Positions 1 through 37,906 are shown, numbered from the stretch's first letter. The stretch is 37,906 nt of DNA from an uncultured archaeon (GCA_964442905.1 CAYUBD010000002.1:1-37906), one strand, 5' to 3'. The notes: generated from the letters alone by a model not told the origin. A program made the numbers and translations.

Positions 1-2649
1 AGCCCGAAGTTGTCCTCCGCGTACACAACTATCGTGTAGTTGCCCCTCACGGTAGTATTGCCCCACGCTCCAGGATAGAACTCCTGGTATATGTAGGGAT
101 CAGTTCCTCCTATGTAAGTCATATTTCTCTGGTCAGTCTGACCTCCCGGCCTGGTGACATTGAGCATAGTGAAGTTTATGCCCGCTATCCCTGCCTGGTC
201 CGTCACAAAGACCCGTATCTCAGTCGTGTTGAGCTGCGGTAAAATGGAAGGAATCGTGTATATCTCTATCAGGGGCATCACAAACGGCGTAAGCAGTATG
301 CTTATGTTCATGCTTCCGGGCTCACCCAGATAGGCGGTTATATTGTAACTGGCGTTGTAGAATACAAGGGGGTCATCCGTGATGTTGTAATACATCGTTA
401 TAACTGTGCCTGTCTGGTTCTCAAGCTGGAAATTGAGCACGTCCGGCCATGTTTGGTTGTTCTCGTTCGTGCTTGTGGCCGCGGGTGTTATGTCGAACGA
501 CATGTTCACATTGCCCGTGTTGTTGACCGTTATGTTGCAGGCGATGCTGTATTCAGGCGATTCGGGATGCTCGCAGGTACCGGGATTGACAGTCCATGTC
601 CTTGTTTCCGGGACGGTTATGTTGAAGTTTATGGTCTTGAAGCCGGAATTGTTGGTGGTGACATTAACATAGCCGAGGTAAGTACCGTTTGGGTAACTCA
701 GTGGTATGCTTCCCGTTATGTTGACTGTTATTATCTGTCCCGCATAGACAGTGCCCCCCTGCGTTTCTGTGACATTGGGAACTGCCTGGAGATTGAAATT
801 CTGGAAATTGCCGAACTCGTCACCTATTGCTATGCTCACGTTGAGAACCGGGTCGTTGCCCGTTGAATTGAGGGTGAAATTGGTTATGACTCCAGATGTG
901 TCATGGACGAGGCTTCCTGAAATCCAGTCCTCGGGTATGGTAAGGTTTACGTTGGAAAGCACTGTTATGTTTACCGTGCTCGTGTTGTGCCAGATCCCTA
1001 TTGCAGGGTTATACCATTCAACCGTAACGTTCAGTGTGTAGTTTCCCGAGGGCGTTCCGTTTGATACCGCTATGTCAAATGCACCCGAGCAGTTGCCGTC
1101 CGGGAGCATGTCGCCGCAGCTATAGACAGTGTTATTGGTGGTGTTTATGAGCGGGTCTGAGAAAGTCAGTGTCACATTAATGTTGTATCCTGTAACGTTT
1201 CCTGAGTTGGTCGTGTTGAAGCTGAGTGTGAAGCTTTGATTGTTATAATACGTTATATTGTCTGCAGTGAAATTATTGGGGGATATATCTAGCGTGACAT
1301 TGGTCCCTGAAACCGTTACATTCAGTTCAAGCTCCTCGTAGCCGTCATTTCCGCTTGTAACGTTGAGTATCCCGTTATAGAATCCGGTTGAGTAACCGCC
1401 CGCAACCAAAAGCTGAACTTCCACGTCGCTCGAATTGCCTGCCGGGAGGCTTGTAAAGTTTTTGGGAACGAATGTGAACGTGAACTCGTCCGGGAAACCT
1501 GTTGCATTGAATTCGACGTTTGTCAGGGGTGCATTACCGAAGGACCTCACGGTCATGTTTCCTATGTTGTTCTGAACGCCAGGCGCAACGAAACCTGTGA
1601 TATTGTTCTCAAGAACGTCAAGGATGTACGTCGGGTTTACAGTCACGTTCATGGCAGTCTGGTTCTCTTCGTATGATGTGTCCTTGTTGGTCCAGTTCAC
1701 CGTGGCATTGATCGTGAAATTCGCAGACGCCGTGGCAGCAAGCACGGTTATGTTGAAGTCTATTCTGCATGTCTTGGATATCGGTATATCGGGTTTGCCT
1801 TCACCGTCATCACAAAAAAGCGAAGTCCCGTTTGATGTCATATTCACGGGAATCTCTATGCCTATCGAGGCGTTGTAGGCTGTCCCGTTTGCCACGTTTG
1901 TGGCGTTTACCGTGAGTATGAAGCTTTCGTTGTCCAGCCACGTCACGTTGTTTATGTCATAGCTGGTAGGTGTGACAACAATGTCTGCATCTGTCTGGGT
2001 CTCTTCCGCTGTAAAGTCGTAGATGTCAGAACCGTCATTGCCTTCCTTATCTGCGGTGCAGTTAAGTGTGAAAAGACCGAACCAACCGGGTGATGTGAAG
2101 TTTATCCAGTAGCTTCCGTTACCATAATCTGTTATGTTTTCTGAATCCACGTCAAAAAGTTTGGATGTGGTCTGATATACGGAACAGTTCACCTGTGCGT
2201 ACGGATGCCATGTATCCTGCCTGTAGTTCATTACATCCAGAGTGGCATTCATCAGCCTGCCGACATCACCGCCTGGGTTAAGTATGACCGCATCGACGAA
2301 AAGTGACTTTGTCAGAGTGAAATTTTTGGATGAAATGTTCATAATATCAAGGTACTGGTCGAAAAGGCAAGCAGTTGCCGTCCAGGTGCCAGTGTACTCT
2401 GTTGTCGTTATGTTGTAGTAGTTCGTGTATATGTAATCACTCGCGTTCTGGTCCCCGTGAGTTCCGTCGTCGTACATGGTTATGTTTATGTCATCTGAGG
2501 ATGCAGACGTTGCGTTGTTCAGGGTCACGTTTACATATTCAACAAGTCCGTAAGGGTCGTAAGTTACGTTAACCGTTAGTACAACAGTCTCGTTTCTGTT
2601 ATAGTAATCGTGGTCTGTTTCCGTGTATGAAAGCAGAGTCCTCTGTTCG
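1..2649 (-). other. CARDB/NEW3-like and Ig-like beta-sandwich arrays of gene 3 (approximate bounds)
   Basis: Example stretches: SLPAGNSSDVEVQLLVAGGYSTGFYNGILNVTSGNDGYEELELNVTV; NGTPSGNYTLNVTVEWYN; YPNGTYLGYVNVTTNNSGF. The terminal PLIEIYTIPS...VFVTDQAGIAGINFTMLNVTRPGG...RGNYTIVVYAEDNFG parallels domains in the giant's 8.9 to 12.6 kb region. Confidence 0.5.
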
Positions 2650-4247: not shown

Positions 4248-4256
4248 CTTATCCTT
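4245..4256 (-). promoter_or_regulatory. Stop/start coupling junction (AAGGA TAA G ATG) between gene 2 and gene 3
   Basis: The minus strand reads AAA AAA GGA TAA g ATG TTG AGC. The TAA ends at 4249 and the ATG begins at 4247. A weak AGGA lies 4 nt upstream of the ATG. This is consistent with translational coupling. Confidence 0.5.
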
Positions 4257-6249: not shown

Positions 6250-6256
6250 ATTCCTT

Positions 6257-6262
6257 ACCTCC
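6257..6262 (-). promoter_or_regulatory. Shine-Dalgarno (GGAGGT) for the 666-aa gene
   Basis: The minus-strand sequence reads ...AGC ATG TAG ttttcactaaacaatccgGGAGGTaaggaat ATG GCA AAG. There is a 7-nt spacer, and the site lies in the 31-nt gap after the giant gene's stop. Confidence 0.8.
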
Positions 6263-6280
6263 CGGATTGTTTAGTGAAAA

Positions 6281-33200: not shown

Positions 33201-36200
33201 GTCATATTGGCGTTCCTTACGAGCGGGTTGAACTGGTACTGCTTTACTTTTGCAAACAGTTCCTGGGTCTCTTCGAACAGGTTCCCGTAATCCCATGTGT
33301 AGTTGATCTGGTTTATGGTAACATTTCCAATTGGATTCTGCGTGCCGTCTGCATGCGCGTAAAGGTTTATCGGCCTTACGTTGCTTACAAAACCGGCTGA
33401 TGGATAGTATAACACCGAATGGGAACCGCTGGTATCCCCTGCGCTGTGGTTATACCATGTGTATCTCTCCGTACTGTCATCGTCAACCATGTAGGCATAG
33501 CCTTCGCCTATCGTGAGGTTTGTCGCTGAGAAATCATAAAGTATGCTGAGGTTTATGTTCGAAAGCCTCTCATAAGGCTGTGACGGGTCCGTGAAAACCG
33601 GGTTGACGGTCGTGCTGCACTCCTCGCCTGAACATGTGTAGTAAACGTCGTCACTGTAGCTTGACTGGTTGGTGGTATCCCGTGTTGCCGTGACGTAGAA
33701 CATCTGCTTCTCGGTCTGGGTGCAGTTTACCGTGACATTATGCCTTATGATGCTTCTGCTGCCGAGTCCTGACACGTTCCATCTCACGGTGTTTGAAACG
33801 GCATTATAAACTCCGTCGTCATAAACTGCCAGTATCTCACATGCATGTGGCACTGAAAGGTTGACGCTCCAGTTGTTCGCTGCAATATCTCCTATGTTCG
33901 TTATCTTCAGGCTGAAGTTGTAGCTGTGATTTGCCTGGACCGTCTTGGGCTCCGGCCACGGGAATTCTGATCTCTGATTGGCCTCGAGAAGGAACTCGAG
34001 GTGGGATTCGCCTGTGTAGTTGGCTGTCTGGAAATCATGCTCTTCATACTCCGAAAGTTCCTTGTCGCTGTCGTAAGTGAGGTTCCATAAGGCATAACCG
34101 GTCTCGCCGCTTCCGGGCGGTGCCTTTATCTGGTAAGTGAGAAGCGCGTATTGGTTTTCGTCTATGGTGCCAAGCACCCATTCCAGTATGTTCTCTTCAA
34201 GGTCCACGCTGGATGATACGAGTTCCACATCGCCGCTTAGTCCGGGGTTCGCCGGAGTCCATCCTGATTTTATGTTATCCTGAATTGCCACGCCGCTTAT
34301 CTGCGCACAGCCCTTGTTGTGTATCGTTATGGCTCCCTCGAATACCTTGCTGCTCGACACGTATACCGGTGTCTCCCTTATGACCTCGAGCACGCCGTGG
34401 TTGTCGTTTTCTATGTTTATGCTCGTATTTTCACTGTACTGCTTGTGCGGAAGCTGGTAAACCACTGAAACGTTTATGGTTCCGTCTTCCGTTGATAATG
34501 GAGACGTCACATTGAACTCTGCTGCGTATGAAGTTATCCCGGTGGCGCTTATGGTCCTCTGGGAAGGCTGGTATGACCATCCAGATGGCACCTCAAGCGT
34601 GACGTTGTACTCAACATCCTCATCATACTGGTTGGATAAAACCACGTAAACGTCGTCTGTATCCTCCGGGCATATGAAGGGGTTGTACCATGTCTCATAG
34701 CTTATGTTCTCCTTTGTCAGGCTTTCATTAATCACGCTGACGTTACCGTCGTAAGAAAGATACGCCATTATGGTATACGTCCCGTCCCAGGAAACGATGT
34801 CTATGTTCTCTATGCTCTCCGTAGAGAATGAATCCGCTCCTATTGAAGGCTGTATGTATGTGGAATTGACCACGGTGCCGCTTTCATCAGTTATGTTCAC
34901 CCATAGATCCGGATTTATTGTGTGATTATGGGAATTCAGTACGGTCACATTGACATTAAGCGAGGTGTCATAGCCGTCAAGGCTGTATGTCTCGGTTGAT
35001 GATATGTAGGGCATTATTCCGAGCACATACGCTTTACTTTCAAGATAGCTCGTCATGTTGGCAGAGTTCACGGTTATGGTGCTGTCGCCTATGTTCTCGA
35101 ACTTGAGTATGCACAGTCCGCTGCCGTTGGGAGTGACATGCTGTCCTGGAATTCTTAGCTCTCTGTAGAGGTTCCCATTTATGATTTCGTAGTTGAGTAT
35201 CTCGTTGAAGGATGTGGAATTGTATGCGTAAATCCTGAAAGCGCTTTCGGAACCTGAATCCATGCTGATTGAGAATGTCTCAAGCCTGTAGTCTCCGGAC
35301 ATGCAGGGGAAGGTGAGGTCTGAAGAATCGCCTGAAGCTACTGGTATGGGGAATGGGTTCGTAGACTGTGACCAGTTATACTTGTAGTTCGTGGTGATGA
35401 AATCCACAGTGTCTTCAGTCCCGTAAGAGTTGTTTGCCTTTATGGTGACATTGAACGTGCCTTCTGTCGTGCCGTTCACGGTCCATGTTACGGTCTCGGG
35501 TGAACCAAGGTTAACGGTTCCAAGATACCTGACCCTGTCGTCGACGTCCCATTCTGGAGGGACATCGAGCGTGGCGTACACGTCGCTCGAATCTCCGATG
35601 TACGTTGCGATTGTAGCTTTTATAGTGAAGTTGTCATACTGAAGAGTCTCATCCGGATGGTAGTAGAAATCAATGGAGGGATTGGCCTGGCAGTTAGAAA
35701 GGTCCAGCGTTATCGTGAGGTTCTCTGATTCATTGTAGTTGTACGCATCATCCGTGGCGGATATCCTTGCGCGCCATATCTGCTGGCCGTCGACATAGTC
35801 GCATGATGGAAGGAAGAGTATCTCCGCCTTTCCGTCCGGGTCAGTCTGGGCGGTGCCTATCTCCTTGCTCCCACCGCTATAACCACTGTCAAGCACCTCG
35901 AATACCACATCTGCAGGCGTGCTGTGATTGTAGGTCTGGGCTATCAGGTCATAAACCCTTACTGAAAGGTTGACGGATACGGAAGTCGATGGATTGGTAT
36001 CGTTCCCTGAATGGTATTCAACAGAGACGTTGTCCTTCGTTATCGTGAACGTGTCGAAGCCGCCCGTTGCTTCAGAGGATAGCTCGTACTTGTAGAACCA
36101 GTTGCCCACATCATCGTAACTGAAGTTGTTGTACCAGTATATTGTCTCGTTTATGCAGTCCGGATAAGCGCAGGATACAATGGTCTGGTTTACGCATGTG

Positions 36201-37906
36201 GTGCATTCGGTATAGCCTGTCGGTGAAGTCTTGGCCATCATTATGTCCACATCGTATGGGTCAGTGTCACCGCTTGATGCTCTTACTGTGAAGTTCCAGT
36301 TTGAATAGCCCCAGCCGTGAGTAGTAGGCGTTACATTGGCATACTCCAGCTTGTAGATAGGGAAGAGGTAGAAAACTCCGGGATCCGATGTTTTCTGTGT
36401 GAAGTTCGGGTAATACCCGACTGCCCCGGCGCCCATGCTGGTGTTATACCACCCCTTCGGTATGGTTATGTTCGTGGCCCAGTCGCATGTGAAGGAGTTC
36501 GCACCGACCTGGTCCACAGGGCTGCACGTGAAAGAGCTGGAAGACTGGTTCGCGAAGAATGACACGGTCGTGGTCACGGGATCTCCGCAGTCGTCCCACG
36601 TTGCGCCAAGGAACGGGACTTTCAGCTCCTGCGTGTAGTTGGTGTCACCGTCGGGCTTTACGAACTCAAGTTCTATGTCTCCCGTCACATTCAGCGTGAG
36701 ATAGTAGTTATTTTCCGTGTTGTTGTTCTTGTAGCATGTGTCATCCTCAATCCTCGCCCTCCACTTCTGGACGTCGACCTGGTATTTCGGGCTGCAGCCG
36801 GCAAGGAAATCATACCTGCCATAACCCGTGCTGTTTGTATAATTCACTGTTCCTGAATCCCATGTCGACCCATCAAGGGTTACATAGAAGTTGAGTGTCA
36901 GGTTCTCTATGAGAGAACCGTTCATGTCCGTGGCCGTAACAAAAAGTGAGGTGGGGAAGCTGTTCCTTCTGGTTTCGGTGTTGTTCCCGCTGTAATAGTT
37001 CAGGTACACCGTGTCCTTCTCGACAGTGAATGCCTGCACGGTTGTCTGGTTCGTTGTCCCCTGCGTGTCATTTGCGAAGATGTAGAAGAATCTGCTGCCT
37101 ATCTCGCCGCACTCCGGGTCCCTTGTGAAGTTTGCCGTCTGCCACTGGTCCGTAATATTGAGTGTGACGTTGCCCATATCATCCCACGGGCCGCTTGTGG
37201 AATTCGAGATGTAAAGAATGAATGTCACGTTGTATGGGGAATCTGTCTGGGCCGTGACGTTGAATGAGAAATTGAATCCCCATTCACCGGAACCCGGGTC
37301 AACTGTGGTGTCCACAAGGTCTATTGTCCTGACTTTCTGGATAGTTACGTTGAACACGCCGCTCTCGTTGTAATTGTAGCATATTTCCGTGTTGTCAACG
37401 AACCCCGCCCAGTTCTGTTTTCCCTCATCGTAACTGCTGTCCGGCGTGAAGGTGAATGGCACGTGGCCTGTGCTGTTTGATTGTGCGGTTCCTGCTTTCT
37501 TGTAGGTGCCGCTTCCCTCCCCGTCGGTCGTTACGTTGTATGCCAGTGTAATCGCATCCTGAAGGTCGTACGTTCCAAGAAGCGTGTCATAAACCCGCAG
37601 GGTCAGTGTAGTTGGAATGGACGATGAAGCCTGGGTCTCGTTTCCGGAATAATATTCTATCGTTACGTTGTGCGTGTCTATGTAGAACGTGTCGTCATTG
37701 TCCACATAGTCACCGGGGTTCAGAACGTCTGTAGTCACAATGTAACTCTCGTTATCTACTGCAGTAAACCTGAACTTCATGTACTGTCCTGCATAGCCCG
37801 TGCAGGGGAGGATGACATTGGTCCAGTTCAGCTGAGTATATCCCTGTGCGTTGTCCGAGCAGTTCTCACAGCTCCTGTTCTCATAGTCCTCCCATGTGCC
37901 TCCAAG
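6281..37906 (-). CDS. Giant cell-surface protein, at least 10,541 codons in the window and 5'-truncated by the window edge. It has a sequon-rich multi-domain beta-sandwich ectodomain, one C-terminal TM helix and a cytoplasmic HerA/DUF87-type P-loop ATPase domain.
   Basis: The ORF track gives an uninterrupted frame over 6281..37780 (10,499 aa). I translated 37781..37906 in the same frame and found no stop: LGGTWEDYENRSCENCSDNAQGYTQLNWTNVILPCTGYAGQY, then MKFRF. The ORF therefore continues past the right edge. The stop is TAG at 6281..6283. A regular domain periodicity of about 1 kb and a sharp ectodomain/cytoplasm composition split argue for a real gene. Confidence 0.93.
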   Translation of the reverse strand, partial: LGGTWEDYENRSCENCSDNAQGYTQLNWTNVILPCTGYAGQYMKFRFTAVDNESYIVTTDVLNPGDYVDNDDTFYIDTHNVTIEYYSGNETQASSSIPTTLTLRVYDTLLGTYDLQDAITLAYNVTTDGEGSGTYKKAGTAQSNSTGHVPFTFTPDSSYDEGKQNWAGFVDNTEICYNYNESGVFNVTIQKVRTIDLVDTTVDPGSGEWGFNFSFNVTAQTDSPYNVTFILYISNSTSGPWDDMGNVTLNITDQWQTANFTRDPECGEIGSRFFYIFANDTQGTTNQTTVQAFTVEKDTVYLNYYSGNNTETRRNSFPTSLFVTATDMNGSLIENLTLNFYVTLDGSTWDSGTVNYTNSTGYGRYDFLAGCSPKYQVDVQKWRARIEDDTCYKNNNTENNYYLTLNVTGDIELEFVKPDGDTNYTQELKVPFLGATWDDCGDPVTTTVSFFANQSSSSFTCSPVDQVGANSFTCDWATNITIPKGWYNTSMGAGAVGYYPNFTQKTSDPGVFYLFPIYKLEYANVTPTTHGWGYSNWNFTVRASSGDTDPYDVDIMMAKTSPTGYTECTTCVNQTIVSCAYPDCINETIYWYNNFSYDDVGNWFYKYELSSEATGGFDTFTITKDNVSVEYHSGNDTNPSTSVSVNLSVRVYDLIAQTYNHSTPADVVFEVLDSGYSGGSKEIGTAQTDPDGKAEILFLPSCDYVDGQQIWRARISATDDAYNYNESENLTITLDLSNCQANPSIDFYYHPDETLQYDNFTIKATIATYIGDSSDVYATLDVPPEWDVDDRVRYLGTVNLGSPETVTWTVNGTTEGTFNVTIKANNSYGTEDTVDFITTNYKYNWSQSTNPFPIPVASGDSSDLTFPCMSGDYRLETFSISMDSGSESAFRIYAYNSTSFNEILNYEIINGNLYRELRIPGQHVTPNGSGLCILKFENIGDSTITVNSANMTSYLESKAYVLGIMPYISSTETYSLDGYDTSLNVNVTVLNSHNHTINPDLWVNITDESGTVVNSTYIQPSIGADSFSTESIENIDIVSWDGTYTIMAYLSYDGNVSVINESLTKENISYETWYNPFICPEDTDDVYVVLSNQYDEDVEYNVTLEVPSGWSYQPSQRTISATGITSYAAEFNVTSPLSTEDGTINVSVVYQLPHKQYSENTSINIENDNHGVLEVIRETPVYVSSSKVFEGAITIHNKGCAQISGVAIQDNIKSGWTPANPGLSGDVELVSSSVDLEENILEWVLGTIDENQYALLTYQIKAPPGSGETGYALWNLTYDSDKELSEYEEHDFQTANYTGESHLEFLLEANQRSEFPWPEPKTVQANHSYNFSLKITNIGDIAANNWSVNLSVPHACEILAVYDDGVYNAVSNTVRWNVSGLGSRSIIRHNVTVNCTQTEKQMFYVTATRDTTNQSSYSDDVYYTCSGEECSTTVNPVFTDPSQPYERLSNINLSILYDFSATNLTIGEGYAYMVDDDSTERYTWYNHSAGDTSGSHSVLYYPSAGFVSNVRPINLYAHADGTQNPIGNVTINQINYTWDYGNLFEETQELFAKVKQYQFNPLVRNANMTRETGGWGEDWNFSVETMDRFSRDVNVSLWLKPPLGSYQSISSFTCSPCTDWTQINFSYTHDCNDKGIWEYKFNMTVIEDGNYTTETTTGNGDYVTDDDYLIEQDDVDVFNITPSWNITVNRSQPYNFTLLANDTDNQTVPNALNYRETFIGVSKTGNNETYENYYPVTPVNSTGYIIYEMINDTTHWCKGWSGSTGTFHLGQNYWKGGILSATCYKDNITEPDPYNAIPFWLMGSLHPDMITPDTTRNYTRADLGPSANYTITLNGTSTDDCSDYKSSITNFPVSFTAESGAYSDTLVVGSTTGNYYTYNWNPDGSAPLGWYNVTMLAYTGGSYIDDYWNGTYFLENAFFLASIPDLTAIGIEPGTSGCWGQSPFNFTLNVSDDDNNTVNVTMYLNSTYTGGAWQLYNYSVCTDCNRTQPIEFSRNFTCGEIGDWDVMFMADDSAGFSYNLTEQFEVMKENITINLYDGDGADINRSDTKEGYRHNLSVMINDTILDETITGISTSNVHSWAETSGSSWNEETPVLNTTNFYYNTFNPGCAYEPGVRNWKFNVSGDTCYTDNESQEFTVYIWGDIDANLTNPDGNTNYTVGQEDIFLRVHVEDECGENVTGLQYSSSEIYFNLTHETGQNYQCASINEEGYGWYNCTYSTTGMLVGDYNATVYTNRSYYNHDTDYSYFFLSSAPILQYPAVIPSSGGWNRTYNYTINITDEDNDTVTVNFYLNSTVTSGWEFQTNDQCTDCDNTTVSFQKMYACTAGDSSNLTTWQFFFNSTDTHDNNASSQENSHTITKDTVNITHLSGDGGTVNISSLVTLSSYVYDFDAQANTTQPEVILYVMENSTDWDNGTVVTPGSGIYAHDFNATCNYTPHTSSWKMNISDQPCYKDNETDIFELIILGYLNNQISEPNGEVFDAGTNVTITGNITDSCGNPISGANVRFIVNGTSSGYCPNATGWVMNDTGNVYTCNWSSWGSLSGAYNITMLSYKSFYNNDTYTKENAFSLTMIPRLQYSNVTPRNEGWSINKTFTVNVTDLGDNATVRMWILKNGTSVWNEVSSSQECKSCNNVQLNWTYEFNYDDVDLWYFKFNATDTEGNNYTTNITSANDYVDDNETFYVEKDDVEFIYVYGNETTTNKTAPTTFIILVNDTDSGEILSSSIPNATIQFEVTENDDSYLVDGSNWTNTTGYVNYEFLASCVYDPGKQKWRVIAGPSDPYYQSSYSSVYNVTLQMQCPEFNVTTLYTPGEAFQYRWFGLNATIQVKDRSATNVNATLLTHGWETAEGSVQYVGTISSGVGSTSFEYVYWNVNATDVVPYLYPFDINVSANTSAPAPHYNYTDDNQTSLIIYKLLESVSAVETTPVNVTPGSPNVFSFPCEAGDYRVGNISVGWTSSGGTAMVEVYNSTAWIDVVHSRLVSGTENIDISLLKAQVAPNGTGFCLARLSADGSNVTVNSMEFEAYYRPTMKVIDIMPEVNGYATKGTRPSDSIFNVSVGIDNPINVSYTADITLNVTNSSGDAINSTTRTGVVINYNSTHYENFTSINLSGHPEGMYSLNAYIDSQLPDHMLSEPFVYGTPEISLTLPNYWCNGTQKTFDVELYHPFYDTVAYNISVEVSAGWILDSTYQEITMYSPGYRTVTFTLNSSQNNENMTINVTANYTYPGIIQQTVNESEILENGNQISVLEIIRETPQVIGGGKVFESALVIHNGGCGIAEGMITLIDVMPSDWIPFNPQIEGSSISYTASTDLENPAYNTITWYIDTSLGTNQSSVTENEYAVATYKIKAPTDLSNPGEFRWNLSWHDSISFKESQENEPFQLYTMNYSSESHLEFDIDVHERSEYPWYEPRSILPNMEYNHSLKVTNIGDITTQNNDWNITVVIPADCNATHAYSSGVYSPSESTISWLLPSIASRETSWLNFTLNCTATGKKIFYPNAEKETRNSTSYEDTVNIHSSQDYNFDSPSEPYQELSEMRFRLNYSYSGTNLTIGESYVNITDDEGTAHVISQNHEFDDFQDEIWSNYSVGEWESFTGTTQTISLNSHADATHSPQSSVAVNMINYTWNYGKLFNETQELFTKVRVFKYLPLIENETIDTQPDVLGGWGEPWNFSVMVRDRFGRNVTTDLYHKKGAAAYSLVDTYLCVDCLPWTQVNMTYDYVCGDIGEWKYLFSANNSDGSLNTSEYIYNIEQDDVDVFNITPSWNITVNRSQPYNFTLLANDTDNQTVPNALNYRETFIGVSKTGNNETYENYYPVTPVNSTGYIIYEMINDTTHWCKGWSGSTGTFHLGQNYWKGGILSATCYKDNITEPDPYNAIPFWLMGSLHPDMITPDTTRNYTRADLGPSANYTITLNGTSTDDCSDYKSSITNFPVSFTAESGAYSDTLVVGSTTGNYYTYNWNPDGSAPLGWYNVTMLAYTGGSYIDDYWNGTYFLENAFFLASIPDLTAIGIEPGTSGCWGQSPFNFTLNVSDDDNNTVNVTMYLNSTYTGGAWQLYNYSVCTDCNRTQPIEFSRNFTCGEIGDWDVMFMADDSAGFSYNLTEQFEVMKENITINVTGGNDTAINRSDLNTYHEIQLAFQIWDTIKNQTTVALNNATEVFTRIEKDTDDWQTVNEINNTTHYYYDFNASCSYVPGKRNWKVNISSPCYIDYETENFPITIFGDVVSTLTNPTELQNYDQSENVTLNGTIVDDCSNDLANASIRFMINSTGSGSTFYCPSPAAFVTNTTGNYYECVWNSSAAPSGYYNITMFSYKDYHNNDSDTNYGIFVVAPVALQDEDVTPDSGGWGDVFDFSVNVSHYTNVTVCLNISDDNFVSYDDSNCQNVTLSSDTKMIYFNETYTCDDRGPWWFKFNAVDIYDKGKSQTPVGTFTVTRDTLEFIHVLGNDSNVSRNDSVGGDYFSRFILYLNDTNNNQPAYYTTGQDLPIVYFNVTVNGSDYNYDGYNRTNSTGHINYDFDPACTYDEGEQVWFAYIKTEQCYFAANSEMYNLTVNGQLYPNVTWPNGTEYEYSIFPAENVLNISGDVLSECMDEYINVSVVNFTIINDANPIFRYWCTSTITNQGNGTYNCTWNYGQTGDQIEGDGFGWFNIEMNASNVSFFNNGSRTKYHAFKIIPYEFSPPILKNESVIFESGGGWGENFTFTVNVTDIDAENVTIQFWLSPEDINWTWIENQTCVECLAESEMQFFYKNFTCENITDTGQYRYFKFNATDPHNTTDRPSFNFTVEKDDVDIGYGGYGNSTEVNRTEIIHLRLWMYDTDSGDNVSSGINGTIRVTYNGSDFDSGTKNTTDSDSYLNYFFTPNCTHDVGTQLWYGGSTGNKCYKDNHSVNYTFTVIGWLNNTLITPNGTDYSNIYLTDDNVTVTFAVNDEVTGNDCEFNISDANVSLKISHNGFEEYCTPVFNWTGGIYNCTWNISSNPSGWYNVTISSNKTLYNPDIELRQSFFHEVDPVLSGAYNDKKSIQWGTNAAKSRITFYVNVTDDDDNVTVRVWHSNASSSGPWYQVSSSPQYCVDCNNDTMTFTHTYTSWNDIGTYYWMVNATDKYGRNHSLADPGNFTFNVTKRNLTFTVLNGSDSYVNRTFGNQTYFRLRVYDNYTGSPPLSGFLDVPGAFYVTKDLENFSFYYQMVVTGAGYMFANFNPDCSYDVMRQLWRGQVNGSERYYDAYSDYYNVTVESILNTTLNPPQLYIIKDEEEVKLYTTVQDLDPSCGYITGASVTFHVKYATGGVEFLCEGANVYDMNNGTYNCTWSTATLPLGWYNVSMNATKQNAGIGQYFYPDEDGIDNAFRLVRRPELVTVVNDTDREGWGHEFNFNVSFQDREGENYDNITLWKAYDQAGPFYDVDTQYDVESTTWTTLEYYVNFSCDDYVNSQTNGVVYLKFNATNMWGKNNETEIFNVTLYKDNLSLSVLSGSDATVSRVGSDFRNLVVYAYDENRLRPVSDPAANASYFITNDTNTVNMVNFTSSNASGQFLYRFNPDCNYTTGEQSWNLSITNDVCYAYNDTGDQVITVKGQLMNYLHEPVQHSDYNVTDQVLLNFSILGDCDETIDDISPGYQLQLTKQVELFSPTDYDTCTPLNYEGQAFYNCTWDSTDHDEGNWTINITSSDSFQYLYFQNETEFADWFWLENIEPQNQTTPSVAPSSDGWTRWFNYSMQISDPENDTTNCTLWISTDGQQNWTMNGTMTLPEGDGTCYIVLDDFRKTDLDFSSGYDTDNYFFFTVEDIEQNNTYNTSIISGPVLEPANITITEIIGNGSKVNITTDASEYTTFILRINDTDNHSKPETMNITFWTELSEGVWDWSNLTLTNSSGYAEYNFAPNCSYAPGVRKWYAEATDMYYDRNATENFTVNINGSLTNYLLYPNGQRLLRGSGQNITIQVKVNDTCGNNMTDLTEENITIRMHSLNTGQYFLCNGTFHIGDGVYNCTFNSTGMPTMGYDTIVNTSRQYYNPNEITVPYTSSTSFFIETLPLIEYPNVTSQGDPTGVPFGWGENFTFSVNTTDEDNDTLTVYLWLNITGAWVLADSNDSVHAKEETMVSFTLVSYFDGNDLQNNPIYYKFNVTDSFYDAETQENNITLTKDDVQGELVAGNDSIVTRGASGAFTWQVKFLDTDKGGNVGNSRFGDFWFTKTDSNDNWIRIPTPPLPPGQTDVSGVLTTQHPNDLDPDGINCSFMIGPHYWRARLIDNPWYQDKYSYVYNWTVVTEPLIVNITLPDYGPYVRGTEPILIRANVSDECRLLNNSDVVFWSTTGGTQYRCPQAGFADDEGDGNYNCTVPANVPEDDLWSYGWHNITSEVNRSYYNSTNTFKEDAYYLASVPQFQTTPDAISTLWEGGAGNGGWGESWEFNVRSGNADGDKMNVSLLINVTDIFEVRNSTNITSTSGTWIRFRSHNFTCTDLQGQTSSTKDYKFNSTSYLWGYSNETNNTFTIFRDDTLVIHYLGEKLQPSINRSGNDYKLLGAYLNDTDRSKVNVGSNVQSAFRVSTTANPVDLGTYIIYNITNTISNGSFYHNFDPNCSFSVGLQGWWAGAYGDACYEDTEFPGSYVYAYIFGQLYNNIEQPAEGTIVQVGDILTVRFNITTDCSNEGLVNATSVILQFGSPEDDWEDCQQLNAEGDGWYNCSWNTSFHIGGNWSIRMFSDNGTLWNENNSILVNWTYLNNTPPTATEFSVAFDDDGGWGEDFNYTVFINDTQYDNVSCRLWVYNGSAWLKKDNTTVYGGVGNCSILVTDFTCGDISNYTRYLFEIDDGTNLFNTSNQTGLNITKDDVVISYVYGHDTNVSRALTNTATLIVRINDTDRENMSVVSGVNGIFWVTADGENYTYHDYNENTTNSSGYLILEFDPWCQHYAVGPQYWKGGTYSDQCYKDANVTIGGNNFTVLIMGEFNHTLEALDPYFYKRGENVTIAGHAPDYDDCEQLGYSNITIILNHESGKNYTYDTIADGTGTYLYQINTSILSARWYNTTSTASRDYYYNGTAYYTDHFYVVTSPALSDPILYSEQGGDVGGWGETWSFHVNVTDEDLDNVTVNLQIRLYGEGPGDWDTRNTTVLTSPVNVTVNMTLYVPTLFQDQQVVWEYRFTATESECDHDACGNSDQTQAINFTIEKDNVTIIVVDGYEAPSNEVWRFGGQEINFSLLVWDTDRDMAVDPSGSGTIWSTHNGSNYNDGWDLSTDNGYLNISFNPECGDTPFYVVGEHDWLGGIINDSYYFDTNSTVETWILNSNMAVEIVAPDGESYERGGRVNISTYVTECGYPVLNADSFTITTKRNACIGAYCWYTCTDETEGGGWYNCSWQTLGSYTKGWYDARQTISENYYETNVTLKPNAFYLGNIPDLYNPAIDHYVGGWGEEYDFYMCIDDQDQNFNNITILKSFDTDSWTLKAYHGRTLASTGTPVCSNTFPQYFSGHMDITFMCQDYLDGPLAYFKFNTTDDSDFTDETGIFQPIELIHNASVGDAGLNYTETITEEGSGIMNYFNITFHNSNGTTLYYNLTVNGVLVDSNRSVSDGTDVTLDVSGLTSFILPGDQSINLTIMDASGQISNATYLVYLEYYSGLLELIFQTDNVTNTIDDLNSSDTLRRLGDNEANITFRISDDDSSLYQYPVDASGKVWIKQYGNEYVTETVHSMSNTTKVLHTASPDAGYNHTEYISASGYPEYFNITVENLNGTTIYYNLTVNGVQIAGNQSVADGVNSTTDAVSSGVPVTAPGYQSINLTIMETGGNISNATYNLHLEYIALSHGVNYTSEIGVTGGVTYFNITVENLNGTTMYYNLTVNGAQIADSQSVADGVNSTTDAVSSGVSFTVPGYQSINLTIMDASGQISNATYNAYLFYLPGLISIPCNTTTGGYCQVKYNATCDSIAGIQKWLGETDDVCYETEYTTTDEDITVYGQLYVNPQVPANGSIINRNTAVSLTATVTDDCDSYINDTSVVWYNESWYQIAAGYNTTWNVPYNYELGPEVLHLNATRQYYDENTNMTDVLVYGWSTVDAILPENNTDFSAGTAVTVTCHVADLNTGIDLEGYVVTFYKDSVYNHTNSTDANGSTTWVWDTQYDTAGGHNISCNITDNTTLYYNASFAMNQTNIIIHRPLWIQYPIWQNYTWIYRNDSFSPNRTHIKVTVRDANLIPGYAEDATVHFYNSTGYLGNCTTDSVGICWFLFNPEDDTYPQDYVIYINATKPSTNEPSSTNTTSVEVRGILYINITSPQNGTLVSKTVDWFIANATVWDENGNYSHSLTVTWYDEDLQPLTVVGTSGLASYIDPDPMSTGMQNITAIAEKSYYDDAEENVTIIVTGAASVYIEPSLHLSSKPYPEPFNFTCYVEDDDGGMGIDKYPVYVWYRYDGASSYTYNGTHYTNSTGYITHTWAPENKDDIWFKCNITDNQTLLYNVSQDEETALVYIEDTEPPQVYNVSVIPNSSIEANLNYTNITATVTDNYQVLEAKANITYPNGTWFYADMTNISQDDYRIQYTPPVGGLYLVRVHAWDPFDEHNMNVSEYYNFTVWGNTLGWINTTPESEIADGITQTDDHRFNLSINFTNFGPPNAYEVVLSVYDSSGNVEYMNITTLAIEENISCGNMAAGESCLWNVTVVIKTDTPPGLIQINANATWRDPDNTYNSTVDITNVYVSSNPVLEIIEDSVEKSVQHGLKTHVGNMTAVSSGNIPLIDVYVFDVGGNFFTGCPLCVLDLTPDYQGYVQDGDNFTVDVTVTVPNGQAPGDYWTKLRANASNAAYDEALLNVTVETNRSWAAVPDTFGTVLTPLSTNGTLGIINFTNTGNVKLTLTFYRTGAATPYVRLNGTLLGFFPVDVGKLVEGVMYIGYELPGTVSPGQVDGEIVITAWETDTSTDAVPPTKSVTFTMNITNPAPYIEDAKAEPEFFEINFENTTVSATIYDNTDVNFAWVNVTKPDGNWTIIPMSNNQSYYWINYSTNTTGLYNFEICANDTEGVQRCVNINGTAVANTTVIVVPNATVFYAENVSIYNSTTIPITFNTTAGYARAYNVTVNVTPYGGWYVSQDSFNYSIMYKNWTETENISITVPEGTLAGNYTLNFTADWTNIDNTTDNSTTTVTIEVVPYPSLEATTGNITVYVGIVNITYGNATLGVRSIGNINVTNVTTSCVSGYVCDNFSSNFVPQIVGAIEPGDTENITVEINTNDPETPSGTYSGILEISADGGIFDIIDIFVKIPTNLSWTQTPGLLEKEAMQGTSGSLGTITLNNDGNVNPTVVDSWISPMPGDGDYFNASQTGTMPVYLGTPVEISMEYTAPVIYDPTTLTAYYRTYNNSGGTEITKETELRLTVHPYFVEILEPTEAQPFVNITENDTIISRVNLSYGRYAVTSNESVVWNATLSDGTDEYWVNATPTFIHLIKNYTGGLIHSASNDTGFNHTEEVTGNGSMAYFNITLVNLNDTVIYYNLTVNGVQVADNQSVINGTNATVDAVSAGADFNISGNQTINLTIMNSTGQLANATYDAYLKYGINASDEGHWILNFSAPDLPLGRAYDLKVSANYTINGTNTSLFLSDTEYKSVIYEDTTPPDIVIDVFSKVSTNTTADIHLYVTDAGGVNTSKIMVTVTHHNVTENLTMNYMSRSGDTYTFLGQFTNTSEKGTYVIDAVAYDMSGNYNTSQKSFLVSLLVYFHGIANDQEELPAQSPLDVDFSLFYTDAEWYFNFSTDGVGYYNRTIDAGIYNILMNVWNETIDMRGADIQTHVHDPFLFGLIKDMGLVGYNTRGLFEARTFEANDNITVDENTTVDLEFDNVTITFNYSSYESEISSTNLLGIYYCDSWTPWVGCSDDWTRLANANVSIHDKTISAFLTSLDGGYAVAEYICGNDECETDYGESNANCPQDCEPAEPQPPPERGGGGGGGGGAGAISAPSAPRIPVKIDSRLIFVTLRPGEHEIHSIDIDNNLPGTITADVKVEGNAWELVMIEKPSIDIRGSSTGTIKIKVFTLPSTMEGIYTGDIITSIRGRNITHVTPITVKVQKPKEPLLDVKVKALSKTVEPGTNLSLEVTLLNMGETSKIDDIVVTYEMRHLDTEKIVLREQETLGMENVRTFKRSIYVPEDTPIGRYSLELNVTYWSGGKQAFAIDSFDVLYIAPPLKMLQALFSSWITYALLFAIIPGYYFGMRFYTDFRKKKKSKSRYIFPMDVNKLPKAGDRSLLVGKIAETDMKAYMTLDDLTTHSIAAGSTGAGKSVSAQVCSEDLLKRGVPIVVIDPTAQWTGFMRACKDSAMLDLYPQFGMKPDDARGFKVNIMVVESSDFVPPWKDIMERKGEMTVLVTEKLPNKDMDTFVRRTVESLFEMRLPEAREMRMMIIFDEVHRLLPKYGGKGGYVVLERACREFRKWGIGIFMISQVLMDFRGAIRANISTEIQLRSKYEGDINRVKTKYGPDYASKITKLVTGTGLMQNAAYNNGKPWFVSFRPLLHDTKRLTAEELDKYVKISKDADALKKQFEALKTKGTDTGDVEVELNLALDKLKQGLFTMAESYMESVKTRMKSM
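6284..6502 (-). other. C-terminal charged, coiled-coil-like tail of the ATPase domain
   Basis: DTKRLTAEELDKYVKISKDADALKKQFEALKTKGTDTGDVEVELNLALDKLKQGLFTMAESYMESVKTRMKSM. It is helical and amphipathic in character. Confidence 0.5.
6827..6847 (-). other. Walker B motif (MMIIFDE, followed by VH)
   Basis: Codons ATG ATG ATA ATA TTC GAT GAG: a hydrophobic strand ending in D-E. Confidence 0.8.
7199..7222 (-). other. Walker A motif (GSTGAGKS)
   Basis: Codons GGT TCA ACG GGC GCC GGC AAG TCC, read in the giant ORF's frame. Confidence 0.9.
7400..7477 (-). other. Single transmembrane helix of the giant protein (type I topology)
   Basis: The segment MLQALFSSWITYALLFAIIPGYYFGM is followed directly by RFYTDFRKKKKSKSR, a positive-inside cluster. 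It is the only long hydrophobic segment I saw in the visible protein. Confidence 0.8.
7478..8176 (-). other. Two membrane-proximal, sequon-poor, K/E-rich beta-sandwich (CARDB-like) domains
   Basis: The region runs from RIPVKIDSRLIFVTLRPGEHEIHSIDIDNNLPGTITADVKVEG to EPGTNLSLEVTLLNMGETSKIDDIVVTYEM to GRYSLELNVTYW. I count only 3 sequons in about 230 aa, against about 1 per 15 aa further out. Confidence 0.55.
8177..8236 (-). other. Pro-rich plus poly-Gly hinge (EPAEPQPPPER then a Gly run)
   Basis: I read nine consecutive Gly codons at 8177..8203 (GGC GGC GGG GGA GGA GGA GGT GGC GGA). They are preceded by a P/E-rich stretch at 8204..8236. Confidence 0.85.
8237..8299 (-). other. Small Cys-rich knot (CGNDECETDYGESNANCPQDC)
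   Basis: Four Cys in 21 residues immediately before the hinge. The first Cys codon is at 8299..8297 and the last at 8239..8237. Confidence 0.7.
8300..14261 (-). other. Heterogeneous array of Ig-like, carboxypeptidase-regulatory-like and CARDB/NEW3-like beta-sandwich domains (approximate bounds)
   Basis: Example motifs: AGTAVTVTCHVADLNTGIDLEGYVVTFYKD...TDANGSTTWVWD; VTVTVPNGQAPGDYWTKLRANASN; PEGTLAGNYTLNFTADWTN; PSGTYSGILEISADGG. There are also three PPxI...A.D..GN Ig-like domains at about 12300..12575, 10930..11200 and 8920..9200. Confidence 0.5.
9358..9652 (-). repeat. YYNLTVNG-type domain, copy 4, an isolated copy about 4.6 kb downstream (approximate bounds)
   Basis: HSASNDTGFNHTEEVTGNGSMAYFNITLVNLNDTVIYYNLTVNGVQVADNQSVINGTNATVDAVSAGADFNISGNQTINLTIMNSTGQLANATYDAYLKY. 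Confidence 0.7.
14262..14559 (-). repeat. YYNLTVNG-type domain, copy 3, in tandem with copy 2 at a 300-nt period (approximate bounds)
   Basis: SHGVNYTSEIGVTGGVTYFNITVENLNGTTMYYNLTVNGAQIADSQSVADGVNSTTDAVSSGVSFTVPGYQSINLTIMDASGQISNATYNAYLFY. Confidence 0.7.
14560..14870 (-). repeat. YYNLTVNG-type domain, copy 2 (approximate bounds)
   Basis: HTASPDAGYNHTEYISASGYPEYFNITVENLNGTTIYYNLTVNGVQIAGNQSVADGVNSTTDAVSSGVPVTAPGYQSINLTIMETGGNISNATYNLHLEY. Confidence 0.7.
15105..15425 (-). repeat. YYNLTVNG-type domain of about 100 aa, copy 1 (approximate bounds)
   Basis: HNASVGDAGLNYTETITEEGSGIMNYFNITFHNSNGTTLYYNLTVNGVLVDSNRSVSDGTDVTLDVSGLTSFILPGDQSINLTIMDASGQISNATYLVYLEY. Confidence 0.7.
15430..26975 (-). 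repeat. Array of 12 consecutive tri-domain (a-b-c) modules, each about 1 kb (approximate bounds)
   Basis: The Trp codon of the conserved G-W-G/GGWG motif recurs at 26917, 25858, 24877, 23833, 22852, 21826, 20809, 19783, 18736, 17725, 16741 and 15727. Spacings are 981 to 1,059 nt. Confidence 0.8.
25572..26662 (-). repeat. Perfect 1,091-bp direct repeat, copy A (one complete b-c-a module, 364 aa)
   Basis: My line-by-line comparison found it identical to 31806..32896. Mismatches flank it at 25571/31805 and 26663/32897. Identical antisense ORFs in the track (25921..26109 = 32155..32343; 26369.. = 32603..) confirm an offset of 6,234. Confidence 0.9.
26976..29527 (-). other. Insert block 2, a diverged paralogue of block 1 (LQMQCPEFNVTT ... 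NYTWNYGKLFNETQELFTKVR)
   Basis: It shares collinear landmarks with block 1: FPCxxGDYR, VAPNGTGFC/VTPNGSGLC, VLE(V/I)IRETP, SESHLEF, EYPWxEP, NLTIGE and NYTWxYGxLF. Confidence 0.6.
29528..33230 (-). repeat. Array of 4 tri-domain modules between the two insert blocks (approximate bounds)
   Basis: Motif Trp codons lie at 33184, 32092, 31108 and 30148, with spacings of 960 to 1,092 nt. Confidence 0.75.
31806..32896 (-). repeat. Perfect 1,091-bp direct repeat, copy B
   Basis: Same evidence as copy A. The offset of 6,234 nt equals 3 x 2,078, so the copies are in phase. Confidence 0.9.
33231..35707 (-). other. Insert block 1, a non-module domain set of about 825 aa (LDLSNCQANPS ... NYTWDYGNLFEETQELFAKVK)
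   Basis: It interrupts the 1-kb periodicity. It contains DUF11/CARDB-like stretches such as VLEVIRETPVYVSSSKVFEGAITIHNKGCAQISGVAIQDNIKSGWTP, and is collinear with block 2. Confidence 0.6.
35708..37906 (-). repeat. N-terminal-most visible modules: two complete a-domains and one cut by the window edge
   Basis: Motif Trp codons lie at 37282 and 36313. The a-domain tail SCENCSDNAQGYTQLNWTNVILPCTGYAGQYMKFRFTAVDNESY spans the listed Met. Confidence 0.7.

Follow-up and report, generated by a model that had tools for sequence, protein, structure and literature searches.

A giant SPEARE-family surface protein with a HerA-class ATPase tail and its conserved partners in a DPANN gene cluster

We analysed a 37,906-nucleotide (nt) stretch of DNA from an uncultured archaeon (GCA_964442905.1 CAYUBD010000002.1:1-37906; "the window" hereafter means this whole stretch) and find that it comes from a minute, symbiotic archaeon of the DPANN (Aenigmatarchaeota-like) and is the middle of a conserved gene cluster, of the Aenigmatarchaeota type, for a proposed cell-surface machine of the SPEARE kind. 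Three genes fill it: gene 1 encodes a giant protein with a membrane segment and a HerA-class ATPase near its C-terminus, gene 2 a charged coiled-coil protein, and gene 3 a large glycoprotein. Very probably, the three products function jointly. Few molecular candidates exist for the means by which DPANN archaea attach to their hosts and draw resources from them, which is an open question, and SPEARE proteins belong to those few. In Aenigmatarchaeota-type genomes, the SPEARE-type ATPase comes with a fixed partner set, and a short cytoplasmic motif common to the partners suggests how they are tied together; the cluster thus supplies concrete, testable components and contact surfaces.

Conserved linkage of a SPEARE-family giant to two partners

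The tail of gene 1 aligned by BLASTP with the C-terminus of SPEARE from Ca. Nanohaloarchaeum antarcticus (Hamm et al., supporting information Fig. S18) at 41% identity over 365 amino acids (aa; E=2e-100), and this direct comparison establishes gene 1 as a member of the family. SPEARE proteins have been described in work on DPANN ectosymbiosis, in which one such protein was detected by proteomics. Reaching up to 8,553 aa, they lie largely outside the cytoplasm, have a membrane segment close to the C-terminus and share a conserved intracellular domain; Woesearchaeota, Aenigmarchaeota, Micrarchaeota and Altiarchaeales were noted to have similar intracellular regions (Hamm et al. 2019, PMC6642349). 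A later account has the chain start with a signal peptide and continue through about 75 immunoglobulin (Ig)-like domains and a membrane segment to a "VirB4/TraG-like ATPase" and a coiled coil at the end; it proposes a secretion "straw" and disputes the protease, adhesion and endonuclease domains of the original name (Reva et al. 2023, PMC10266531). Both present SPEARE as a proposed host-interaction protein of cultured nanohaloarchaea.

The SPEARE-type ATPase module is a large and ancient DPANN family. Using two family-specific peptides, we located at least 594 family loci in species-representative genomes, and a scan with a family hidden Markov model returned 469 clusters at E <=1e-30. Homologues of the gene 1 tail are DPANN proteins, the best from Aenigmarchaeota at 62% identity. 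A core module of 619 positions (two CARDB-like domains, the membrane segment and the ATPase) lies C-terminally in most of 150 listed proteins, which range from less than 600 to 7,878 aa; the small members (about 550-700 aa) have nothing but a hydrophobic signal-like segment and the core module. Full-length giants and gene 3 homologues were beyond the reach of our word-indexed protein search, which listed nothing longer than about 770 aa, and are included in the representative library. In 73 of 86 related loci, the open reading frame stays open through the entire available upstream flank (up to 10 kb), and in other assemblies relatives of gene 1 are called at 8,615, 11,894 and 12,781 aa, the largest in locus L087 (1-9931; JGI 3300028917 Ga0310070_1000072) and the next in L088.

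We then examined the same 86 DPANN loci for the two partners by tblastn and BLASTP. A gene-2-like reading frame lies downstream of the ATPase on the same strand in 83 of them, at a median distance of 31 nt (<=100 nt in 67 of the 83). A gene 3 homologue follows gene 2 in 56 loci, with a median gap of 17 nt and a gap of <=100 nt in 33; the remaining 23 intervals contain 0.1-7 kb of inserted genes. Pairwise identity is 24-35% for gene 2 and 31-40% for gene 3 in most loci. The order of ATPase giant, coiled-coil protein and large glycoprotein is kept on one strand across dozens of DPANN species-level genomes at 25-60% protein identity, and its persistence at such low pairwise identities indicates that it is maintained by selection and is not a sign of recency. 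A first-pass annotation of the window had suggested that the three products probably act together, with recurrence of the triad in related genomes as a test. It does recur, and joint action is supported by conserved order, strand and tiny gaps, as well as by the two distant gene 2 homologues that we looked up (29-31% identity), which sit beside the giants of 11,894 and 12,781 aa.

The partnership extends to the small members of the family: in two other DPANN contigs, the genes that follow them matched the gene 2 core profile at 97-98% hhalign probability and keep its AEIRS..RE (AEIRS..Y.RE) and SLEN-type (GSLEN) motifs. We collected 29 gene 2 homologues at E <=1.6e-37, none carrying a functional family name from its source. 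Another candidate, P0152, matched at E=1e-4, sits among ribosomal genes and was rejected as coiled-coil noise.

Adjacency could also reflect shared ancestry in compact genomes, with gene 2 a generic coiled coil and gene 3 an independent surface protein. DPANN genomes are gene-dense and short gaps are common in them; similarity between coiled coils can mislead, as with P0152; and many loci carry genes inserted between genes 2 and 3. Against this stand an order and strand that are kept where the proteins are only 25-35% identical, the two motifs retained in the partners of small members, and a SHOCT-like unit common to gene 2 and the gene 3 tail. Moreover, in every context examined, the homologues at E <=1.6e-37 lie directly after the ATPase giant and nowhere else, so that linkage of gene 2 to unrelated systems, which the first-pass annotation had named as a sign against joint action, was not seen. 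We consider separate functions for the three products very unlikely.

The membrane-anchored ATPase and the partner proteins

In gene 1, 10,147 aa stand before the membrane segment. The ectodomain contains 625 N-x-S/T sequons, compared with 184 +/- 11 expected from composition (3.4-fold), and the last 366 residues contain 1, compared with 1.0 expected. The membrane block forms a long helix in the AlphaFold2 model and is conserved in the family alignment. This sequon pattern, the hydrophobic block and the basic RKKKKSKSR stretch that follows it together indicate that most of gene 1 lies outside the cell, with the ATPase inside. The segment is moderately hydrophobic: it failed a Kyte-Doolittle cut-off of 1.8, and a hand calculation gave a mean hydropathy of about 1.3 over 19 residues.

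The HerA-like tail proposed in the first-pass annotation is borne out by Pfam, in which the last 401 residues scored 34.9 bits for HerA_C (cut-off 22) and 31 for DUF87 (cut-off 23.2). We identified Walker A (AGSTGAGKS, 7199-7225), Walker B (MIIFDEVH, 6821-6844) and a REFRKWG..ISQ motif (6719-6763), and the GSTGAGKS, DEVH and REFRKWG..SQ residues are invariant in an alignment of 22 sequences. The tail was modelled at a predicted local distance difference test score (pLDDT) of 90.3, with about 60 residues and two short strands between the membrane segment and the P-loop and C-terminal helices at tail residues 335-360, 366-380 and 384-400 (pLDDT 85-95). The best Foldseek match of the ATPase was Sulfolobus HerA (4d2i, E=1.3e-12), followed by HerA-NurA and SIR2-HerA and then by the TcpA coupling protein and VirB4, at identities of 13-18%; a profile search of PDB sequences agreed on HerA as the best match.

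Other assignments were tried and rejected. For VirB4 and type IV secretion, AAA_10 remained under its cut-off (26.1 versus 27.5 bits), the VirB4 N-terminal domain PF03135 was not among the Pfam hits, and the TraC/TraD NCBIfam models gave 22-26 bits where 366-567 are required. CedD was the best NCBIfam hit of the tail, but at 33.3 bits against a cut-off of 600 and over the P-loop region only. PADLOC returned generic HerA/mad8 hits (E 1e-13 to 5e-4) without SIR2/DUF4297-type partners, which speaks against HerA anti-phage defence, and among 50,697 phage records a single HerA hit at 25% identity offered no case for a phage origin. The gene 1 ATPase is a membrane-anchored member of the HerA clade and not demonstrably a VirB4, Ced or defence ATPase.

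These results bear on the idea that the ATPase pushes protein effectors into the host. Some membrane-anchored FtsK/HerA-class ATPases are protein exporters, and the structural neighbours found here include VirB4 as well as TcpA, a coupling protein. The published proposal for the homologous nanohaloarchaeal proteins is of this kind, with a VirB4/TraG-like ATPase driving effectors through a conduit formed by the chain of Ig-like domains, as part of a type IV-like secretion system (Reva et al. 2023, PMC10266531). In our searches, however, HerA ranked above VirB4 and TraG by sequence and by structure, the Pfam evidence for VirB4 fell short as described above, and neither a second VirB4-like ATPase nor any Pfam-recognisable type IV secretion or conjugation gene was present in the window or the neighbourhoods examined. 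A chain of beta-sandwiches is also not obviously tube-forming, and we regard the secretion straw as quite improbable for this cluster.

Gene 2 has neither a hydrophobic segment nor an N-x-S/T sequon, as the first-pass annotation had stated, and its suggested role as a cytoplasmic scaffold is plausible for an all-helical, very highly charged protein without sequons. The family shares an order of elements: a short N-terminal motif, a variable low-complexity region, a SHOCT-like unit that a Pro/Ala linker joins to a core of about 280 residues, and two further SHOCT-like units. AlphaFold2 predicts helices only, with the three units as helix-turn-helix hairpins (pLDDT 85-93), long core helices that break at GSLEN, and disorder at residues 35-151, 228-261 and 614-628. 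In unit 1, residues L168, L169, E173, Y176, A179, Y186, N193 and L197 are invariant in the family alignment, and Pfam gave no hit. The earlier label "SHOCT" stands as a likeness in predicted helix-turn-helix form and falls short as a Pfam assignment (E=0.028 for the full protein; 21.5 bits, E=1.9e-4, for the isolated C-terminal peptide against a cut-off of 27). Gene 2 found no relatives among PDB sequences and no Foldseek match with E <1, and an exact look-up of its sequence found nothing.

Gene 3 is cut by the window edge, and its nature became apparent from complete homologues, which measure 1,430-2,103 aa (mostly 1,910-2,100). Since 37 of 38 of these end in a strongly hydrophobic segment followed by a cytoplasmic SHOCT-like tail of 70-90 residues, gene 3 is an anchored partner and not a secreted one, and the free tip envisaged in the first-pass annotation is not borne out. 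The tails carry the motif ..VL.LLEREFKEGIIS..AY..LK.RN.EKL and match SHOCT, SHOCT_2 and GvpG weakly in Pfam (E=0.0036 to 0.57, with GvpG scoring similarly); this unit is of the same kind as the gene 2 units. As a partner for gene 2 to contact, the shared motif suggests the gene 3 tail at least as strongly as the C-terminal helices of the ATPase.

The window's part of gene 3 contains 100 sequons, compared with 28.6 expected. Its N-terminal domain is its best-conserved part (33-64% identity in 48 loci) and the best-conserved extracellular domain of the cluster; it showed no PDB relatives and no consistent Pfam match, and a homologue search gave only 4 short proteins. Residues 700-1415 of gene 3 match the gene-3-type modules of gene 1. 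The match is at 24-30% identity with both gene 3 and its full-length homologues (BLASTP, E down to 3e-23), and both proteins carry NPCBM_assoc/CARDB-like domains, in keeping with the shared ectodomain types recognised earlier.

Window layout and the gene 1 ectodomain

The features of the window are collected in the table below.

Table 1. Features of the window, with positions counted from its first nucleotide
Feature	Position	Strand	Description
Gene 1	6281..37906	minus	SPEARE-family giant, >=10,541 aa; stop TAG 6281-6283; 5' end beyond window
Gene 1 N-terminal ectodomain, aa 1 to ~7,900	14207..37906	minus	diverged repeated modules, many sequons
Exact direct repeat, copy B, 1,091 nt	31806..32896	minus	inside gene 1, identical to copy A
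Exact direct repeat, copy A, 1,091 nt	25572..26662	minus	inside gene 1
Mostly unique gene 1 ectodomain, aa 7,901-9,869	8300..14206	minus	colinear across DPANN phyla
Gene 1 modules of gene 3 type, aa 8,500-9,400	9707..12409	minus	BLASTP to gene 3
Border of giant part and core	8177..8299	minus	Cys motif CGNDECETDYGESNANCPQDC 8237-8299, Pro-rich linker, G9 run 8177-8203
Two membrane-proximal CARDB/NPCBM_assoc-like beta-sandwich domains, aa 9,922-10,140	7487..8143	minus	NPCBM_assoc E=1.5e-7
Membrane segment and basic stretch	7355..7465	minus	LFSSWITYALLFAIIPGYYFGM 7400-7465, then RKKKKSKSR 7355-7381; conserved hydrophobic block
HerA-class P-loop ATPase	6491..7357	minus	predicted cytoplasmic; Pfam HerA_C and DUF87 above cut-off
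C-terminal helical region, 69 aa	6284..6490	minus	three helices (AlphaFold2), family-conserved
Gene 1/gene 2 spacer	6250..6280	minus	31 nt, GGAGGT at 6257-6262
Gene 2	4249..6249	minus	666 aa, very highly charged, all-helical, predicted cytoplasmic
Gene 2 SHOCT-like unit 1, aa 155-207	5629..5787	minus	helix-turn-helix, pLDDT 86-91
Gene 2 coiled-coil core, aa 268-550	4600..5448	minus	invariant GSL (nearly invariant EN) 4894-4908
Gene 2 SHOCT-like unit 2, aa 556-609	4423..4584	minus	sole Pfam match weak GvpG
Gene 2 SHOCT-like unit 3, aa 632-666 (C-terminus)	4252..4356	minus	Pfam SHOCT sub-threshold
Gene 3	1..4247	minus	first 1,415 aa of glycoprotein, about 2,000-2,100 aa long in most complete relatives; 3' end and C-terminus beyond window
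Gene 3 signal peptide	4185-4247	minus	
Gene 3 conserved N-terminal domain, aa 141-565 (~425 aa)	2553..3827	minus	motif WWN.SW.YR

Three minus-strand reading frames cover 99.9% of the window and leave 32 of its 37,906 bases uncovered, and the only gaps are the spacer before gene 2 and a single nucleotide before gene 3 (TAA-g-ATG); the first-pass annotation had described both the strand and the gaps correctly. The frame of gene 1 runs for 10,541 codons to the window edge and lacks any stop upstream of the ATG at 37780, so that the N-terminus of the protein lies outside the window. Neither Rfam families nor tRNAs occur in the window, and a promoter and terminator scan gave no enrichment over shuffles, with consensus patterns that are bacterial and not applicable to an archaeal host.

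The ectodomain of gene 1 is built largely from repeats. As a whole-protein self-BLAST masks them (hits contained in the self-match are culled), we compared the protein in chunks, finding 106 off-diagonal pairs at 25-60% identity that cover 68% of gene 1, as well as a segmental duplication of about 2,078 aa (aa 1251-2744 versus 3337-4499). The repeat-built part carries 21-43 sequons per 500 aa, and Pfam is almost blank on the ectodomain, with only Big_7 and a weak NPCBM_assoc match over the first ~7,900 aa; weak DUFs are the only addition across the entire ectodomain.

Within the segmental duplication lies the exact 1,091-nt repeat, its copies in frame and 6,234 nt (2,078 codons) apart, with abrupt borders beyond which protein identity drops to 41-48%. 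Either gene conversion in the recent past or a fault of assembly would account for it, and the extreme length of gene 1 might be due in part to mis-assembly through repeats, given an N-terminal 7,900 aa that is made of them. An intact frame over 31.6 kb, independent assemblies with orthologues of 8,615, 11,894 and 12,781 aa, and colinearity of the last ~2,700 aa with several independent contigs all argue otherwise, and such an error would alter the length of gene 1, not its nature. We consider it very unlikely that mis-assembly inflates the protein.

The last ~2,600 residues of gene 1 are mostly unique. The closest loci are colinear with gene 1 from about aa 6,340 on, at 60-71% identity over ~2,700 aa, and the ectodomain remains colinear in a Micrarchaeia locus (33% over 1,513 aa) and a Woesearchaeota locus (36% over 1,530 aa), which argues against a rapidly diversifying adhesin. 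This cross-phylum stretch (window 6800-18880 versus L031 and L068) was unexpected for a presumed host-specific adhesin.

Such conservation is what a fixed coat, stalk or spacer would display, and the giant and gene 3 might form one, with nothing transported and with the ATPase, the coiled-coil protein and the ParA/MinD-like protein of related loci inserting, spacing, tensioning or turning over the structure. Archaeal envelope proteins typically carry dense glycosylation sequons, as genes 1 and 3 do here; ParA/MinD-type ATPases, for one of which a gene recurs at these loci, serve to position structures in the cell; and the family is very widespread in DPANN genomes. We know of no precedent, however, for a ring translocase-type ATPase fused to an S-layer protein, some genomes hold several paralogues, and the small versions have only two ectodomains. 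The host interaction proposed for SPEARE in cultured nanohaloarchaea (PMC6642349; PMC10266531) also counts against it, and we judge a purely structural role unlikely.

At the border between the giant part and the core module lies a Cys-rich motif (C.N..CE.GE...NCPQDC) that is also found directly after the signal peptide in small members of about 650-700 aa, such as P0083 and P0103. It may serve as a hinge held by disulfides or as a site of processing; the extracellular and cytoplasmic parts of SPEARE were found in different size fractions (Hamm et al. 2019, PMC6642349). The membrane-proximal beta-sandwich region that follows aligns with the entire ectodomain of the small family members.

Beyond the window, the cluster continues in related genomes. 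A gene for a ParA/MinD-like ATPase occurs in 31 of the 86 loci, where it either follows gene 3 or separates it from gene 2, and in the closest relatives the same strand carries on with a ~210-aa protein, a ParA/MinD/CbiA-type ATPase (Pfam AAA_31 4.6e-18, ParA 2.1e-16), a 90-aa protein and a second K/E-rich coiled-coil protein. The gene layout of the "three-gene operon" first proposed is therefore confirmed, and its limit to three genes is not. This downstream set follows gene 3 in L086 (18675-22136) and L083 (16580-20081), where the ~210-aa protein belongs to no family, the 90-aa protein has an N-terminal hydrophobic segment, and the second K/E-rich coiled-coil protein, of about 650 aa, has no BLAST-detectable kinship to gene 2.

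Two further contigs are of interest for the family. In L091 (1-14734), the ATPase core belongs to a giant of 3,904+ aa; directly after it comes a 552-aa small member, the two being tandem paralogues, and then a 1,005-aa gene-2-like coiled-coil protein with long internal repeats. In L092 (18511-21869), on a 477-kb DPANN contig, a small ATPase family member is followed, 6.6 kb downstream, by a separate gene of 9,544 aa.

A tentative model and comparison with known systems

We tentatively propose a surface machine for host contact, based on a HerA-class membrane motor and a scaffold in the cytoplasm, in which a polymer is moved at contact; taken whole, this statement seems to us a little short of evenly balanced. 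HerA/FtsK-class enzymes form rings, and by analogy six gene 1 tails would form an ATPase ring. With only about 15 residues between the membrane segment and the beginning of the ATPase domain as drawn here, this ring would lie immediately beneath the membrane and would gather six giant ectodomains into one fibre or hub that extends to the host cell. Gene 2, by way of its coiled coil and SHOCT-like units, would cross-link genes 1 and 3 at their cytoplasmic ends; the gene 3 tail, and perhaps also the C-terminal helices of gene 1, could be joined by it in one assembly, which the ParA/MinD-like protein would position. ATP hydrolysis would then drive a polymer across the symbiont membrane at host contact. 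By homology, the polymer would most likely be DNA, as a source of nucleotides or genes; this is the least secure step, and we hold DNA as the substrate with less confidence than the model as a whole. A bolder version strikes us as doubtful: the giant, gene 2, gene 3 and the ParA/MinD-like protein would constitute an unrecognised DPANN-wide class of surface nanomachine, in which a HerA-type ring motor is fused to a glycoprotein fibre of megadalton size, spans to the host and transfers DNA or some other polymer from cell to cell, by a mechanism unlike those of type IV secretion, Ced/Ted and archaeal pili.

Several observations weigh against a host-contact motor. The tail model lacks the N-terminal HAS-barrel of HerA, no NurA-like gene occurs in any neighbourhood examined, and no DNA-binding domain was found. 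One moderately hydrophobic membrane segment per chain is a thin basis for a channel. On the side of the partners, the SHOCT assignments are all sub-threshold in Pfam, and the AlphaFold2 model of gene 2, with a predicted template modelling score of 0.22, is unreliable in its overall arrangement and has no structural neighbours; co-transcription of the three genes is suggested by their spacing only. Cross-phylum colinearity of the ectodomain at 33-36% would suit a fixed structural role better than host-specific adhesion. Finally, neighbourhoods differ in Micrarchaeota, Woesearchaeota and Nanoarchaeota loci, as does the nanohaloarchaeal one (Reva et al., PMC10266531).

The combination had been annotated at first as not recognisable as a described system. 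That does not apply to gene 1, the type of which is already published, with Aenigmarchaeota relatives of the intracellular domain noted by Hamm et al. (PMC6642349); it does apply, within the papers searched, to the constant linkage to two partners. In the literature we searched, there is no description of a fixed coiled-coil partner, including one beside the small family members, of an anchored glycoprotein with a matching cytoplasmic motif, of a recurrent ParA/MinD-like gene at SPEARE-type loci, of an affinity of the SPEARE-type ATPase to HerA rather than VirB4, or of deep colinear conservation of the ectodomain.

Among known motors, HerA of Sulfolobus (PDB 4d2i) shares the Walker A, Walker B and "RK.G.G...SQ" motifs with the gene 1 ATPase, which differs in being membrane-anchored and fused to an ectodomain. 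HerA has an N-terminal HAS-barrel and a NurA partner, whereas the gene 1 tail has only its two short strands and no NurA gene nearby. An N-terminal-side membrane segment followed by a cytoplasmic ring ATPase, comparable to gene 1, is found in TcpA, VirD4/TraG, VirB4, FtsK/SpoIIIE and Streptomyces TraB; TcpA and VirB4 are structural neighbours of the gene 1 ATPase that score below HerA. Membrane motors of the FtsK/HerA superfamily move DNA or protein across the membrane, and to our knowledge none of the conjugative coupling proteins, VirB4, FtsK/SpoIIIE or TraB carries a giant ectodomain. The Ced system of Sulfolobales (CedB/CedD; PMC11823120) imports DNA between archaeal cells with HerA/VirB4-like ATPases; no CedA-type channel or pilin family was among the Pfam hits in the neighbourhoods examined. 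The SHOCT domain (PF09851/PF20612) is a short helix-turn-helix, to which the gene 2 units and the gene 3 tail bear a likeness at Pfam scores under the gathering level. It often forms the C-terminal cytoplasmic end of membrane proteins and has been proposed to act in oligomerisation or nucleic-acid binding (Eberhardt et al. 2013, PMC3581485); three copies in one coiled-coil protein are unusual for it.

The closest comparison is SPEARE itself. Like gene 1, SPEARE proteins run for thousands of extracellular residues of Ig or beta-sandwich type, cross the membrane once near the C-terminus and carry a conserved P-loop ATPase in the cytoplasm, and their "coiled-coil at tip" (Reva et al., PMC10266531) matches the three C-terminal helices of gene 1. 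Unlike what the name SPEARE implies, Pfam shows no laminin-G, protease or restriction-endonuclease domain in the 10,541 aa of gene 1 in the window, and no toxin domain either. Nanohaloarchaeal SPEARE loci have a second VirB4/TraG-like ATPase downstream (Reva et al., PMC10266531), where the present cluster has a coiled-coil protein without a P-loop, and the cluster differs from them further in its conserved partner glycoprotein with a SHOCT-like tail and its ParA/MinD-like gene. The gene 1-type ectodomain is colinear across phyla, whereas SPEARE ectodomains are described as variable by Hamm et al. (PMC6642349). In size, gene 1 and its 12,781-aa relative exceed the 8,553 and 9,409 aa reported for SPEARE (PMC6642349; PMC10266531) and also the ~9,000 aa that Hamm et al. 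quote for halomucin (PMC6642349). Archaeal proteins of 10,500-12,800 aa are thus documented, above the largest in the SPEARE literature (PMC6642349; PMC10266531).

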